From: Candidatus Iainarchaeum sp.
GTDB taxonomy: Archaea > B1Sed10-29 > WALL01
Length of the DNA stretch: 64,000 nt
Direction of reading: 5' to 3'
Assembly: GCA_023129115.1 (NCBI GenBank)
Contig: JAGMCR010000003.1
Coordinates: forward strand, 96,001-160,000
Program-made: the position numbers and the translations under genes
Shown here: one piece after another, positions 38,093-62,901 of the stretch
How positions within the stretch are numbered: the stretch's first letter is position 1
Layout: each line of letters begins with the position of its first letter
Notes under the pieces: model-generated
Told to the model about the DNA's origin: nothing
Database searches by the model: none
Seen by the model: only the letters and a program-made list of their open reading frames with translations

Positions 38093-39270
38093 GTCAACTG
38101 TCCATTAATAAATGGGCTTGTAACTCTCTTATGAGGTTACGATTGGCTGGTTGACAAGCAGCCTACCAACTTCAGTCTTGCCGAGGCTGGCGATATTTTG
38201 GGAAGCGTTCAAGTCACTGTGCAACTCGAAGCCGCAGGACTTGCAGCTGAAGACAGCGCCGTTTCGATTGGATTTTGTTTTGTGGCTACACTTGCTACAT
38301 GTTTGGCTTGTGTAAGCCGCTCCCACGAACACGACAGTTTTGCCTGTTTCTTCTGCCTTGTAGCTAGTGAATGCTTGGAGTTGTGCGTAGCTCCATCCAC
38401 CCAGTTTTTTGTTGAAACGCTTTCCATTACGCTTCTTCTTTTTGATGTGGAGTTTTTCGAAGGCAATGCAATCAAAAGGCAGGGAAACCAATTCTTTGCT
38501 GATACAGTGGTTGAGGTCAGTCACGAACAGTCTTTCTCGCCCGCTAATATTCTTGAGCTTGCGTTTGGCAGAGCGAGTGCCAATAGACTGAAGCTTTCTG
38601 CGTAGGTATTGATATCTTCCCTTGACCTTTTTGAGGTGCTTGGAATTAAAGAACGTGTTATTAGAACAAACTGCAATATTGTTCACGCCGAGGTCAACTC
38701 CCAACACCAATTTTGGCTTTTTGGGTTTTGGAGCCTCCTTCTCAGCAATGAGAACGAAAAACAATTGGCTGTTTTTGTACTTGAGAGTCGCAGCCTTAAT
38801 TCGCCAATCCTTGTATTTGTTAAAGTGATTCGGGATTTTAATCGGAATTTTCTTTCTTCCACGAACCGTGCTGACAGAAACAAAGCCGCTTTCGAGGAAT
38901 GGGGTAAATGTCCGAAGATTTAACCTAACACTCCCAAGCAAGTGTTTCTTTGGCTTCTTGGTGAATTTAGTCCTCTTAAGCATATCACAGGCAACGTCTC
39001 TCGCGGATTGGACCAAGTTACTCTGGAGCAAGGGAAAGTCCCTGCGAATAGCGCGGTAAGTAAGCTTATGAAGTTTTATCTTGTTATGTTCCTTGATTTC
39101 CCAACCAACATTAATCACTTCTTGACAGGCTTGGTTGAATAGTTCCATCGTCTTAATTAAGTCTGGGTCGTCCTCACAAGGAGCCGTTATCGCCCTTTGC
39201 ATGCCCATATATCCTATGAAAGGTATTTAAACACCATTCTACTACAACTTGCCGAGGACATAATCCGGGG
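38093..39270 (-). mobile_element. IS200/IS605-family (IS1341-type) element, tnpB only
   Basis: Right end CAAGCCCATTTATTAATGGACAGTTGAC (minus strand) after tnpB stop; no tnpA; left end approximate. Confidence 0.75.
38129..39208 (-). CDS. tnpB: RNA-guided endonuclease TnpB
   Basis: RuvC I GVDLG, RuvC II FEKL, TSQTCSKC/CKSCG Zn ribbon, RuvC III SDLNASQNI. Confidence 0.92.
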   Translation of the reverse strand: MGMQRAITAPCEDDPDLIKTMELFNQACQEVINVGWEIKEHNKIKLHKLTYRAIRRDFPLLQSNLVQSARDVACDMLKRTKFTKKPKKHLLGSVRLNLRTFTPFLESGFVSVSTVRGRKKIPIKIPNHFNKYKDWRIKAATLKYKNSQLFFVLIAEKEAPKPKKPKLVLGVDLGVNNIAVCSNNTFFNSKHLKKVKGRYQYLRRKLQSIGTRSAKRKLKNISGRERLFVTDLNHCISKELVSLPFDCIAFEKLHIKKKKRNGKRFNKKLGGWSYAQLQAFTSYKAEETGKTVVFVGAAYTSQTCSKCSHKTKSNRNGAVFSCKSCGFELHSDLNASQNIASLGKTEVGRLLVNQPIVTS

Positions 39271-39295
39271 TAGACTTAGGTTTCTCCCCAGATAA

Positions 39296-40297
39296 GTGGT
39301 TTCAATGCATCTTCCCAACATCTATGCAACGCCTTACTACAAATTCTATGTCATAATCTCAATAGCCCTGGCAATCGCCGCGTTCCTCGCCCTGCCCGGC
39401 CTGAAGTACGGCATTGACCTCAACGGCGGCACGCAGCTCATGGCAACCATCGACAGCAGCGTCTCCGAGGCCGAGCTCGGAGCCAGCCTCGCGAAGTACA
39501 GCCTGGACGACCTCTCAATCCGCTTCTCCGAAAACCCGCTCACGGGAAGGAAGGGCGTAATCATCGAGTTCGCGGGCACGCCAGACCTCATCGAGGCGGA
39601 CGCAATCACCGAGTCCAACCCAGGCCGCGCCATCGCGCTCGCGCGCCCCTACACCCGGGGCAATGCCAGCGCCGCAATGACCGCCCGCGAGGTCGTCGAG
39701 CTAGCCAAGGCCGACTTCACCAAGGAAGTCCAGAACGGCCTGGCCAGCTTCCTCGGGGTGCCCGAGGAGCAGATTGGCTCGGTCGAAATCGGCGCGTCGC
39801 TCGGCAGGGAGTTCTGGGAGACCTCGCAGCGCGCCCTCTTGGTCGCGTTCTTCCTCATCGCGGCAATCGTGTTCATAATCTTCCGTGAGGTCGTGCCGTC
39901 AATCGCAGTAATCCAGGCGGCGGTGTTCGACGTGTTCATCGCCCTGGGGGGCATGGCGGTCTTCGGCATCCCACTCACCCTCCCAACTATTGCGGCCCTG
40001 CTGATGATGCTGGGCCACTCGGTCGACACTGACATCCTAATCACGGACAGGATTCTGAAGCGCAAGCAAGGCACTCCAGCCGAGCGCGCGTTCGGCGCCA
40101 TGAAGACAGGCGTCACAATGACCGGAACCCTGCTAATCGTGCTCGTGGTCCTCGTGGTATTCTCGCACTTCAACCAGATGACGACCCTTTTCCAAATCGC
40201 GGCGGTGCTCATGTTTGGCATGCTTGCCGACCTGCCGAGCACCTACTTCACTAACTCAGTACTGGTACAGTGGTGGGCGGAACGAAAACAGAAATAA
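39296..40297 (+). CDS. secF: Protein translocase subunit SecF
   Basis: GIDLNGGT; IAALLMMLGHSVDTDILIT. Confidence 0.9.
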   Translation: MVSMHLPNIYATPYYKFYVIISIALAIAAFLALPGLKYGIDLNGGTQLMATIDSSVSEAELGASLAKYSLDDLSIRFSENPLTGRKGVIIEFAGTPDLIEADAITESNPGRAIALARPYTRGNASAAMTAREVVELAKADFTKEVQNGLASFLGVPEEQIGSVEIGASLGREFWETSQRALLVAFFLIAAIVFIIFREVVPSIAVIQAAVFDVFIALGGMAVFGIPLTLPTIAALLMMLGHSVDTDILITDRILKRKQGTPAERAFGAMKTGVTMTGTLLIVLVVLVVFSHFNQMTTLFQIAAVLMFGMLADLPSTYFTNSVLVQWWAERKQK

Positions 40298-60333: not shown

Positions 60334-61152
60334 ATGGCCAAACCGCTCCACGAGAACAAGAAATTCCAGAAAACCCTGAAACAAAACGTGAAAAAGCACA
60401 GCCTCCGCGCAGGCATCGAGAAGACTTTCGAGGAATACCCGCAGATGGGCACCACGGACGTCCGTCTCACGCTCAAGGCCCTGCAGAAGGACTCCTCCAT
60501 CTATAGCGCGTTCAACAAGCTGAAGAGCGCGGGCAAGATACGCTCCGTTGGCAAGGGCGTGTACGAGTCGACGAAGCGCGGCAAGACGGGCGAGACCCTC
60601 ATCCAGGCGCGAAGGAACTTCGACGGCATGGCGCTGCACCTCAGCCCGTCCCGGGGGGAACTGGACAAGCTAGTTATCTTCGTGCACACAAAGCTCTCGA
60701 CGACCGGCACGACAACAGGTGACGTTGTTAACTATATCTTCGAGAACATGGGGCACCACGTCGACAAGAAGTACGGTGAAGAGGACAGGGAGTACAAGAG
60801 GACCAAGCTCAGGAACGCGGTGAGCCAGAGGTTCGTCCAGCTGAAGAGGAACAAAGTAACTGGCTCGGTTAGGTTCCCTGCCATCCATTACTATCCCGGT
60901 GTCGAGATTGACACCAGCGGCTTCGAGAAGCCCAAGAAGGAAAGGAAAAAGCACGAGAAAAAAGACACGCGCACTTACCCAATAGCCGGCACTCGCCGGG
61001 AGTGGACTATCGACGAAGTTGTAAAGGTACTCGGCAAGAAAGACAAAAACGCAAGGAAACTAAAAATTTTCCTAAACCTCAACCCAAAATTCCACATGGA
61101 GTTGCTTGACAACGAAAAAATAAGGAAGGCCCTGTGGGGGCTAAATCGCTAG
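60334..61152 (+). CDS. Basic hypothetical protein, possible tandem winged helices
   Basis: SSIYSAFNKLKSAGKIRSVGKGVY wHTH-like segment. Confidence 0.6.
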   Translation: MAKPLHENKKFQKTLKQNVKKHSLRAGIEKTFEEYPQMGTTDVRLTLKALQKDSSIYSAFNKLKSAGKIRSVGKGVYESTKRGKTGETLIQARRNFDGMALHLSPSRGELDKLVIFVHTKLSTTGTTTGDVVNYIFENMGHHVDKKYGEEDREYKRTKLRNAVSQRFVQLKRNKVTGSVRFPAIHYYPGVEIDTSGFEKPKKERKKHEKKDTRTYPIAGTRREWTIDEVVKVLGKKDKNARKLKIFLNLNPKFHMELLDNEKIRKALWGLNR

Positions 61153-61904
61153 CCGAACCACTCTTTTCGGACGGGGTAGATGTCCCTGGCATGGAGCCAT
61201 AGCTCCATTCCTTCCAAGAACCCGAACCAGTACACCACTATGCCCGGGCCCCAGAGCTCGGTGTATGGCTTGAGCTGCACGGTGTAGTCGCGCCGCAGCT
61301 TCTTCATGTCGCCGAACGAGCCCTTGCTCTCTATCCAGTTCACCTGCTTCTTCTCGCCGTCGACATCAATATCAATCGGCTTGTCCAGCAGGAAATCAAC
61401 CGTTTTCCCGCTCCCCTTCAAGTCTTCCTCGGTCTTGTAGACCATCGCGCGGTCGTCGAGCCACTTCGCAATCCGTGCCTCGCCCTCCTCGCCGCGCTGC
61501 TTTTGTATCTCGTAGCCCTTGGTGGAGTAGACGAGGTCGCATTCCTGTGCCCGCTCCAGCTCCTTGCGTATGCGCCTGTCCTTGACCGAGTTGTAGTCGG
61601 CCAGTGCGTTCCGGACCTCTTTCTTGGTCATGCCGTGCTCCCTCAGCACGATGCTCGCCATCAGTACCGGGGAAAACCTGTGCTTGCTCGCGAGGTGGTC
61701 GAACGACCTGCCGCGCCGCCACTCGTCGAGCAGCCTGTCGCTCTTGGCAGTGACCTGGTAGTAGCTCCGCTTGATGTCGCGGACATGCTTCTCAGTATAC
61801 AGGACCAGGAGCAATTCCCGGTCATACCCTTCTCCCGCGAGGCGCTCAATGTCCTCGCCGCCCTTCAGCTGTTTCCACAGCTCGTTGTACTCTGTTATGT
61901 TCAT
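61149..61904 (-). CDS. C15orf41/TPD-domain (CDIN1-like) nuclease family protein
   Basis: KTVDFLL, WIESKGSFGD, QLKPY..LWGPGIVVYWFG; start taken as ATG 61904. Confidence 0.82.
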   Translation of the reverse strand: MNITEYNELWKQLKGGEDIERLAGEGYDRELLLVLYTEKHVRDIKRSYYQVTAKSDRLLDEWRRGRSFDHLASKHRFSPVLMASIVLREHGMTKKEVRNALADYNSVKDRRIRKELERAQECDLVYSTKGYEIQKQRGEEGEARIAKWLDDRAMVYKTEEDLKGSGKTVDFLLDKPIDIDVDGEKKQVNWIESKGSFGDMKKLRRDYTVQLKPYTELWGPGIVVYWFGFLEGMELWLHARDIYPVRKEWFG

Positions 61905-61912
61905 CGAATTTG

Positions 61913-62273
61913 GCTCAAGGAAGCCCACGGTTTTAATCGTGGGAGAAGTTGAGCCTCCCTCCTGTTCTCTCGGCAACCTGTAGCCGAATGGTTTTTAAGC
62001 GCCGATTGGCGTAAATGTTTTATCGCCATGGGAGCGGGCTTAGCCCAGTTTTCCCGTGGGCAGGTCGTCTCTGGAGTTTCCCAGAGCAAGGGTAACCCGA
62101 CCTTTGCGCTTAACAATGACGCCAACGGGCTCAAAAGGCACTGCGTGCCAATGCCCTTGGCTGAGTATGAGCCTTCCGCAAGGCTTTCTTGTGGACGCTT
62201 CCCGCGAGGGAACGTTAGATAACGAATTTCAACCACCTGAAGGCCCACGACTTTAGCCGTGGGAAGAGGTTAC
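61913..62273 (+). mobile_element. Non-autonomous IS200/IS605-derived element enclosing a structured non-coding region
   Basis: Two co-oriented hairpins CCCACG-N8-CGTGGG at 61924 and 62244 (GGCCCACGACTTTAGCCGTGGG..GGTTAC); no protein inside. Confidence 0.75.
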
Positions 62274-62340
62274 CTCTAGCTCCCCTTTACACAAAAGAAG
62301 CAGTAATCTTATTATGCACTACAGTCAATATAAAAACCTT

Positions 62341-62901
62341 ATGGCGAAAATCCCGCAGGCAGAGGGAAAACAGCTCCTCGCGCTGGCAAGGAAAGCGATA
62401 ACCACCTACCTAGAGAAGCGCGAAAGGATTTCCCCGCCGAAAGAGCCATCGGAAAAGCGCGGCGTGTTCTGCACCCTGAGGACCCGCCACGACGTGCTCC
62501 GCGGCTGCATCGGCCTGCCCTACCCAACCAAGCCGCTCGCAGAAGCGATTGTCGAGGCCGCCATCTCCTCCGCGGCAGGCGACCCGCGGTTCAAGCCCGT
62601 CACTGCCGAAGAGCTTGGCGAAATCAGGATAGAGCTGACCGTCCTCACCACTCCCGAAGAGCTGGAATGCCCCAAGGCAGAAATGCCAGGCAAAATCGAA
62701 ATCGGCCGCCACGGCCTAATCGTCAAGGGCCAGTACACCAGCGGCCTCCTCCTCCCCCAGGTGGCCGTCGAGAACGGCCCGTGGTCGCCTGTCGAGTTCC
62801 TCGAGGCGACCTGCTGGAAGGCCGGGCTGCCGCCGCAGGCGTGGAAAGAAGAAGGCGTCAAAATCTCTTTGTTCGAGGGCCAAATCTTCACCGAGGGCTA
62901 G
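62341..62901 (+). CDS. AMMECR1 domain protein
   Basis: GVFCTL, LRGCIG, DPRF, GRHGL, GLLLPQV, C.KAGL. Confidence 0.93.
   Translation: MAKIPQAEGKQLLALARKAITTYLEKRERISPPKEPSEKRGVFCTLRTRHDVLRGCIGLPYPTKPLAEAIVEAAISSAAGDPRFKPVTAEELGEIRIELTVLTTPEELECPKAEMPGKIEIGRHGLIVKGQYTSGLLLPQVAVENGPWSPVEFLEATCWKAGLPPQAWKEEGVKISLFEGQIFTEG

Follow-up and report, generated by a model that had tools for sequence, protein, structure and literature searches.

The stretch of DNA considered here, referred to below as the window, comprises 64,000 nucleotides from Candidatus Iainarchaeum sp., an archaeon from a cold-seep sample whose own assembly (G000) contains 1.25 Mb in 19 contigs and is 88.6% complete. Near the right-hand end of the window, a minus-strand gene encoding a PF14811 (TPD) protein (61152-61904) and the gene encoding AMMECR1 (62314-62901) are separated by a protein-less element of the IS200/IS605 type, a palindrome-associated transposable element (PATE), at 61905-62273. 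The first-pass annotation had described a protein-less IS200/IS605 cassette at this locus, and this description is confirmed by matched hairpins at the two ends, the lack of any Pfam hit in the open reading frames (ORFs), a second copy and empty sites in a related genome. The proposed bounds (61913-62295) were near the true ones and have been corrected by the second copy, the ends of public contigs and the empty sites. A spacing of ~10 nt between the element and the start of a "CDIN1-like" gene, which is the PF14811 gene, had also been given and is not found, as the element directly abuts the start codon.

The mobility of the element is shown by two copies at unrelated loci and by two empty sites. 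The second copy, the one other copy with different flanks, is located on contig 4 of G000 (C4:81621-81994, minus strand; BLAST identity of 95% over 374 bases). When the two copies are aligned each is 369 bp, which leaves no room for a transposase or nuclease gene, 349 of the 369 positions are identical, the right flanks are unrelated and TTCAT precedes both. Three runs of a single cold-seep study supply public DNA contigs that have loose ends at 62273 and join the interior to just these two flanks, with an interior read depth of ~2x the flank depth; no contig that bypasses the element was found among these three runs. A search of public sequencing runs for this stretch gave no RNA run that contains it. 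In G001, a genome from the same genus used for the empty-site comparison, the PF14811 and AMMECR1 genes are divergent neighbours with 57 bp between them, ndk and adk are 3 nt apart, and the element is absent from both places. Because both sites are empty in G001 both insertions are real, which speaks against a segmental duplication as the source of the two copies, and neither site has a target-site duplication. TTCAT is ATGAA on the reverse strand, and its CAT is the start codon of the left gene in both copies (PF14811 here, adk on contig 4). When rejoined, the contig-4 flanks read ..GTGGA/ATGAAG.., which is the ATGA stop/start overlap of ndk and adk, now 369 bp apart. We read the right-end tail, in reverse complement (L002:1495-1510, contig 4 of G000), as providing the last base of the final ndk codon and the TAA stop of ndk.

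The features of the element are collected in Table 1. The CCCACG/CGTGGG hairpins near the two ends are in the same orientation, and the 22-nt direct repeats that surround them are 82% alike. The element has no terminal inverted repeats, its termini reading CGAATTTGG... and ...GAGGTTAC. Between 62026 and 62263 hairpins are densely packed, two with GNRA loops among them. At the DNA level these include CCATGGGA/TCCCGTGG (62026-62059) around GGGC-TTA-GCCC, GCAGGTCG/CGACC around CTCTGG/CCAGAG, and TTCCC-GCGA-GGGAA (62199-62212), as well as a perfect AGCCTT/AAGGCT stem (62170-62185) that is an alternative pairing to CC-GCAA-GG. The hairpins, the stems and the TATA-like box at 61992 listed in the first-pass annotation are present at or near the places where it had put them; two of them, the GGCTCA/TGAGCC stem and the CC-GCAA-GG hairpin, are recognised from the letters of the sequence.

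Table 1. Features of the element and its immediate flanks (positions in the window).
Feature	Position	Strand	Description and basis
TTCAT target / transposon-adjacent motif	61900-61904	+	CAT is the minus-strand start codon of the PF14811 gene; TTCAT precedes both copies
Complete non-autonomous PATE, 369 bp	61905-62273	+	Second copy, public contig breaks, empty sites in G001
Left-end nested hairpin	61912-61955	+	Outer GGCTCAA/TTGAGCC, inner CCCACG-8 nt-CGTGGG at 61924-61943
Second left-end hairpin	61969-61987	+	CTCGGC-AACCTGTA-GCCGA; common to resident tnpB elements
TATA-like box TTTTTAAG	61992-61999	+	tnpB promoter position, inherited; predicted promoter activity
Junction of left-end homology and omega-RNA homology (deletion scar)	62001-62021	+	Holds the predicted transcription start
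AUCGCC (Ile-Ala remnant, RuvC-III "N-I-A") and stem 1	62022-62059	+	CCAUGGGA-GC-GGGC-UUA-GCCC-AGUUU-UCCCGUGG
Stem 2 region	62060-62107	+	GCAGGUCG/CGACC around CUCUGG/CCAGAG hairpin; expanded relative to tnpB-linked relatives; folds and model R2
Expansion segment	62108-62165	+	Hairpin GCCAA-GGGC-[GGCAC-UGC-GUGCC]-GCCC-UUGGC; folds; no sequence homolog
3' scaffold	62161-62237	+	CUGAGUAUGAG motif, AGCCUU-CCGC-AAGGCU, UGUGGA, UUCCC-GCGA-GGGAA, CGUU-AGAU-AACG, AACCACC
Right-end hairpin and tail	62244-62273 (hairpin 62244-62263)	+	CCCACG-ACUUUAGC-CGUGGG and tail AAGAGGUUAC; 62273 is the element end
Flanking DNA, putative guide if the RNA reads past the right end	62274-62292	+	CTCTAGCTCCCCTTTACAC; by position and the TnpB omega-RNA rule only

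The left end of the element resembles those of the tnpB elements in the same genome. The TnpB zinc-ribbon family has four matches over the cut-off in G000, corresponding to three intact frames (357, 399 and 399 aa) and one that is frameshifted. One of the intact frames belongs to a full tnpB-only element on the minus strand of the window (38094-39316, with the 357-aa TnpB at 38132-39202), which has its own left end with a CTCGGCAA-type motif and a right end reading ...TTAATGGACAGTTGAC; contig 3 carries two type-2 tnpB copies (399 aa) and one frameshifted type-1 copy. Immediately before the resident tnpB genes lies DNA that resembles element positions 11-96 (76-84% identity by BLAST; nhmmer E 0.0009-0.03, with 0.0009-0.002 for positions 22-96 and 11-95), and the order of a hairpin, a CCTCCCTC box, a second hairpin (CTCGGCAA-N4-TAGCCGA) and a TATA-like box is common to all of these left ends (alignment A5). 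The second-hairpin pattern CTCGGCAASNNNTAGCCGA occurs five times in G000, at three tnpB left ends and in the two PATE copies, and in none of 400 other archaeal genomes. Additionally, the resident tnpB elements have a TCAT-type left flank in common with the PATE. The element's TATA-like box is aligned with T(T/C)TAAATAC boxes that are 22-33 nt before four tnpB ATGs. Since the left end aligns with those of the resident tnpB elements, the internal promoter proposed in the first-pass annotation is an inherited tnpB promoter position, at which promoter activity is predicted. The left-end homology ends near 62000, and homology to tnpB 3' regions begins at 62019-62022.

The right end was compared with metagenome loci. 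A first metagenome scan with an exact right-end pattern gave no matches, and a second with a pattern taken from the element's own right end returned 54 loci, ~17 of which are IS605-type ends; many of the remaining loci were set aside as seeming uvrA coding sequence or other chance matches, and L078, which contains N, was left out of the re-matching. The right end in L085 comes directly after a stop-to-stop tnpB frame of 405 codons, while C-terminal parts of tnpB are contained in L068 and L073. The last 50 nt of the element are 82% identical to the L085 right end, a comparison that is partly circular (19 pattern bases) because the loci were picked by a pattern from the same right end. Element positions 290-363 are matched in L087 by nhmmer (E 0.012). 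By eye, UGAxGUAUGAxG, UGUGGA and AACCACC follow in the same order in the L022-like tnpB 3' ends, with extra hairpins between them in the element. At the level of sequence, these alignments show the last 50-80 nt to be homologous to right ends that directly follow tnpB in metagenomes. Two loci from one metagenome assembly (L050:1950-2245 and L060:1830-2130) are short tnpB derivatives in which a middle coding fragment directly adjoins the final ~100 nt with the right end. They are found beside the full-length copies L068 and L073 of the same assembly; L060 keeps an upstream left-end-type hairpin and a TATAAAG box, and none was made out upstream in L050.

The interior folds as RNA. On the plus strand, RNA of 62015-62275 has a folding energy of -104.2 kcal/mol (z = -3.28) that none of 200 shuffled sequences equalled, while for the minus strand z is -2.53 and 3 of 200 shuffles fold equally well; from these values, the excess structure is real but modestly strand-specific. 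Two models were used to compare the interior with tnpB 3' regions. Model R1 was made from the element (62024-62215) with a structure drawn by hand, and in G000 it matches the two copies only. On 25 loci with IS605-type ends (74.5 kb, both strands, filters off) the six best matches of R1 (E 0.009-0.12) are all sense-strand tnpB 3' ends, namely two resident type-2 genes (12-14 bits) and four members of the L022-like family from a GTDB archaeal genome and metagenomes. In the R1 alignments, which together with R2 cover three lineages, AUCGCC (62022) is placed on the Ile-Ala codons of the RuvC-III "N-I-A" motif and stem 1 on the stem that follows; R1 also weakly pairs the inner hairpin of 62108-62165 with GGUAUCGCAUACC of a type-2 tnpB 3' end. 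Model R2 was made from six foreign tnpB 3' regions, cut before AACCACC (the motif used to find the loci), with the element excluded. The top match of R2 in the window (both strands, filters off) is 62019-62136 on the plus strand (16.7 bits, E 0.016), where CAGGUCG..[30 nt]..CGACCU is aligned with the second stem of the L022-like family. On 12 loci R2 gives the resident type-2 tnpB 3' ends 24.9 and 24.8 bits and the window copy an E of 0.0086.

Single-sequence folds of tnpB 3' regions contain the same stem at the same offset, and the arms of stem 1 have paired changes between lineages (CCAUGGGA/UCCCGUGG, CCGGCAGA/UCUGCUGG, CCCAGAGG/CCUCUGGG and CCCUCAGG/CCUGGGGG). In alignment A6, which spans stems 1-3 across L022-like, type-2 and PATE sequences, 94.1% of the cells pair compared with 43.6-49.4% when the 3' partners are slid, and 20 pairs are changed on both sides compared with 2-6 when slid; A6 has ten rows, is model-fitted, includes one spurious reverse-strand row and holds two copies of the element that are too alike for the other stems. 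The distance from N-I-A to the end is 252 nt in the element and 164-176 nt in its tnpB-linked relatives. Compared with the tnpB-linked forms, stem 1 lacks the apical ~30 nt and is cut to a UUA loop, still perfectly paired, and ~100 nt (62060-62165) are expanded or new. Together, the models and folds support a relationship of the interior to the 3'-terminal, omega-RNA-bearing part of tnpB elements. The candidate orphan omega-like RNA of the first-pass annotation was thus largely right, as its interior is akin to tnpB 3' ends by R1, R2 and the folds. The same annotation had held that alignment of the interior to a decayed tnpB coding sequence would speak against such an RNA; this was found in part, as the first 40 nt lie on the last tnpB codons, but omega stem 1 is located there and appears to have been kept through paired changes. 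A resemblance of LNNDANGLKR to LNASINILKR (E ~1) was dropped because the models put the N-I-A remnant at 62022. With three resident TnpBs (one as a stop-to-stop frame) and three metagenome TnpBs as queries, tblastn found nothing in the element below E 0.5; two of the queries, the type-2 resident ones, were mis-framed and carry no weight in this result.

Several results weigh against this relationship and against a working element, in addition to the partial circularity of the right-end comparison and the limits of A6 given above. The interior scores low (10-17 bits), resting mainly on stem 1 and position. Element positions 104-290 (62008-62194) are without a sequence relative in the element's own genome, 60 relatives, 30 other genomes of the phylum and the fetched loci; BLAST of these 60 and 30 genomes gave just short matches at chance level or confined to hairpins. 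For ~100 interior bases (62108-62165 and nearby) neither nhmmer nor BLAST found a match in the fetched loci or genomes. R1 had one match in 149 other archaeal genomes, with an E of 0.022 that is at chance level over so many genomes. On the 12 loci R2 did not bring the contig-4 copy, which differs at 62022 and 62024, below E 0.05, and a filtered whole-genome search with R2 listed one type-2 tnpB 3' end and not the element. As for the ends, the TATA-like box of the element is a poorer match than the boxes of the tnpB genes (TTTAAATA), and the CCCACG/CGTGGG right-end hairpin is in none of the four resident tnpB elements. A Y1 transposase (PF01797) was not found in the assembly, which at 88.6% completeness also limits the preceding comparison.

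Despite these points, the PATE is probably of the tnpB-only (IS1341) type, one in which internal deletion joined the promoter end of a tnpB element to an omega-RNA scaffold. The deletion would have taken out the tnpB frame and joined the left end (the transposase hairpin, second hairpin and promoter box) to the last part, which is probably an omega-RNA scaffold from the Ile-Ala remnant at 62022 through the right-end hairpin to 62273. The element would have moved as single-stranded DNA, with a Y1 TnpA acting on it in trans. Its TATA-like box would start an RNA of ~250 nt at about 62020-62026, and the predicted transcription start, 24-28 nt past the box, coincides with the first base of the putative scaffold. 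In TnpB omega RNAs the flanking DNA past the right end is read as the guide. The RNA from the element would likewise consist of the scaffold reading into the flank, and the guide proposed in the first-pass annotation is, by position, the DNA directly past the right end. Loaded with this RNA, a compatible TnpB produced from another locus could cleave the emptied site (TTCAT and the flank CTCTAGCTCC...), which would retain the element in place. A search of the genome for trans targets of either guide beside TTCAT (allowing up to 3 mismatches in 16 nt or 1 in 12 nt) found none. For the putative guide, such an outcome is in line with an ordinary homing role rather than a trans target.

The two copies do not differ evenly. 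Of their 20 differences, 18 are in the 120 positions from 61905 to 62024 and two in the 249 positions from 62025 to 62273 (Fisher p = 6.6e-8, with the boundary picked after looking). The 18 differences on the left are spread over the 6 leading nucleotides, the scar and the left hairpin, where they affect its foot, loop and 3' flank. Four of the 20 are at 62001-62006, and two further ones, at 62022 and 62024, are just beyond the junction; 13 of the 20 are A/G exchanges on the plus strand. The stems of the left-end hairpin, the second hairpin and the TATA-like box are unchanged between the copies. Such an uneven pattern may reflect selection acting on the RNA part, gene conversion or a mosaic origin. 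CCTTT occurs at positions 11-15 past the element end (62284-62288) in both of the otherwise unrelated right flanks; this could be chance (~1-2% by our own estimate) or a weak target or termination preference.

It is possible, though on balance doubtful, that the element is an inert relic, that is, a deletion derivative whose RNA serves no TnpB, whose stems are inherited and which persists as a passenger with neither a partner nuclease nor a transposase. The failure to find a Y1 TnpA in the assembly, the absence of the right-end hairpin from all four resident tnpB elements, the low R1 scores of the resident type-2 omega regions, the weakened TATA-like box and a copy number of just two are all in line with such a relic. 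However, a partner may be missing from an incomplete assembly, and the three resident tnpB frames that are intact belong to elements with the same type of left flank as the PATE. The near identity of the two copies from 62025 onward, where the left part has diverged, and the perfect pairing of stem 1 despite the loss of its apical portion also argue against a passenger. At the other extreme, the element may function as a guide-RNA gene in its own right, whose RNA is loaded across element families by an intact resident TnpB, with neighbouring genes that depend on its left end and a TnpB-RNA complex that acts as a local regulator, by analogy with nuclease-dead relatives of TnpB. Both insertions sit on ATGAA starts and one of them splits the ndk/adk overlap, so in this host expression of the neighbours may by now require the left end, but we regard this fuller role as unlikely.

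Two further explanations of the interior concern its product. A 64-codon frame at 62028-62222 is intact and identical in both copies, the sole substitution inside it (62135) is synonymous, and its ATG is ~30 nt past the TATA-like box, as in tnpB genes; nevertheless a functional small protein is very unlikely. A single substitution cannot show selection, overlapping ORFs of 66 and 115 aa are present in other frames, and none of the three internal ORFs (64, 66 and 115 aa) has a Pfam family at E up to 10. A phmmer search of 1.84 billion proteins with the 64-aa ORF gave four matches, all to proteins of 706-2151 aa in 3-8 separate stretches and none of similar size, and RNA stems with homology to tnpB 3' ends account for this stretch of sequence. 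The dense hairpins, the two GNRA loops and the ~100 nt without a homolog could alternatively belong to another mobile structured RNA carried inside IS605 ends, for example a ribozyme, a group I intron or IStron, or an IscB-type (HEARO) RNA, and a new mobile structured RNA was also raised in the first-pass annotation. This, too, is very unlikely, as the start and the end of the interior align to tnpB 3' regions. A search with Rfam models, including those of group I introns and HEARO, found nothing in the window at the gathering score except one tRNA, and at E up to 10 gave no relevant family in 61800-62400, where the two matches, to a microRNA and a long non-coding RNA (lncRNA), are at chance level.

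A number of side observations concern the ends and the surroundings of the element. The layout TTCAY, ~11 nt, CAAGGAA and a hairpin is also found in L009, L022 and L037 and upstream of the frameshifted tnpB on contig 3, and similar hairpins are located at tnpB-type left ends in L009, L022, L037, L090 and L095. In L037 (Eubacteriaceae) the left end reads TTCAT, 11 nt, CAAGGAA and the hairpin. A scan of a genome collection for the left-end hairpin returned mostly the right ends of an unrelated multi-copy element of Lachnospiraceae, which were rejected as relatives. This element (L017-L036, for example L032:800-900) is often found at contig ends, and its right end (...AAGGAATCCCACGGTTTTAACCGTGGGAGTATGTCAA) has a hairpin nearly identical to the left-end hairpin of the archaeal element. 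Because the Lachnospiraceae and Eubacteriaceae ends match the archaeal type, this type of end is common to both domains. Two further CCCACG..CGTGGG occurrences in G000 (C5:86300 and C7:30912) are inside seemingly coding regions and were judged to be chance. In run X1 a 5888-nt contig (record 2) contains the left-end hairpin of window 61914-61952 with four differences, followed by other sequence with a TATA-like box of its own; the contig may represent a full-length relative, possibly of the parent type. Beyond the element, comparison with G001 suggests that the second ATG (62341, MAKIPQ...), and not 62314, is the start of AMMECR1, and the intergenic DNA of G000 and G001 can be aligned from AAGAAGCAG to the ATG at 62341. 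The tRNA gene that accounts for the only Rfam match over threshold in the window is at 310-384.

The element is a clean, fully bounded archaeal case of an IS605-type element reduced to its RNA part. Because a tnpB promoter is fused to what appears to be the first base of the omega-RNA scaffold, a guide RNA could arise without processing of an mRNA. The case bears on the idea that transposase, nuclease and guide RNA are interchangeable modules that act in trans, here in a 1.25-Mb archaeon with four tnpB genes. The expanded scaffold, with ~100 extra nt, and the trimmed stem 1 point to parts of the RNA that tolerate change, which may be of use for the engineering of compact TnpB editors. Current understanding is unchanged by the element.

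Several known systems can be compared with the element. The tnpB elements folded here have their first stem directly past the RuvC-III N-I-A codons, as in the element. Unlike tnpB omega RNAs, the element has no upstream tnpB, the apex of stem 1 is a UUA loop and ~100 extra nt follow stem 2. RNAs at the 3' ends of IS1341-type genes in archaea (TnpB omega RNAs or sense-overlapping transcripts) are described in PMC4615843; according to that description they overlap the last codons and extend to the right end, as the predicted RNA of the element would. L050 and L060 from metagenomes and L009 and L022 from genomes have the same general end layout as the element (a TTCAY target in L009 and L022, and a hairpin with a tail ending in ..GTCAC or ..CTGAC) and have most of tnpB deleted. 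These four keep recognisable tnpB coding fragments of 200-600 bp, whereas the element keeps the Ile-Ala remnant and the RNA part only.

PATEs were defined in haloarchaea by Dyall-Smith et al. (2011, PMC3119063), whose account attributes some of them to deletion within tnpB elements and includes one with a non-coding C-terminal remnant. As described there, the haloarchaeal PATEs and the element both lack terminal inverted repeats and a target duplication, both have similar palindromes near the two ends, akin to IS605/IS1341-type transposons, and both have an origin by internal tnpB deletion, which for the element is the probable one. The host is different, being a small-genome cold-seep archaeon with two copies, and the likeness is between descriptions rather than sequences. 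The 2011 work is older than the discovery of the guide-RNA function, and its description of PATEs makes no RNA claim. A more recent preprint by Meers et al. (2023, PMC10055086) reports for Geobacillus stearothermophilus that PATEs "often encode omega RNAs", for use in trans by the TnpB of other elements. Like the element, these PATEs are portrayed in the preprint as minimal members of the IS605 family without protein genes, with ends similar to those of the tnpB/iscB elements that share their genome. They differ in being bacterial, in the presence of the transposase and matching nucleases and in having measured omega RNA expression, whereas the element here is known from its sequence and neither partner was found in the 88.6%-complete assembly. 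The novelty implied in the first-pass annotation is therefore not upheld. Since PATEs with a 3' coding remnant or an omega RNA are already in print in the descriptions given by these two sources, the element is a fresh example of a described kind.

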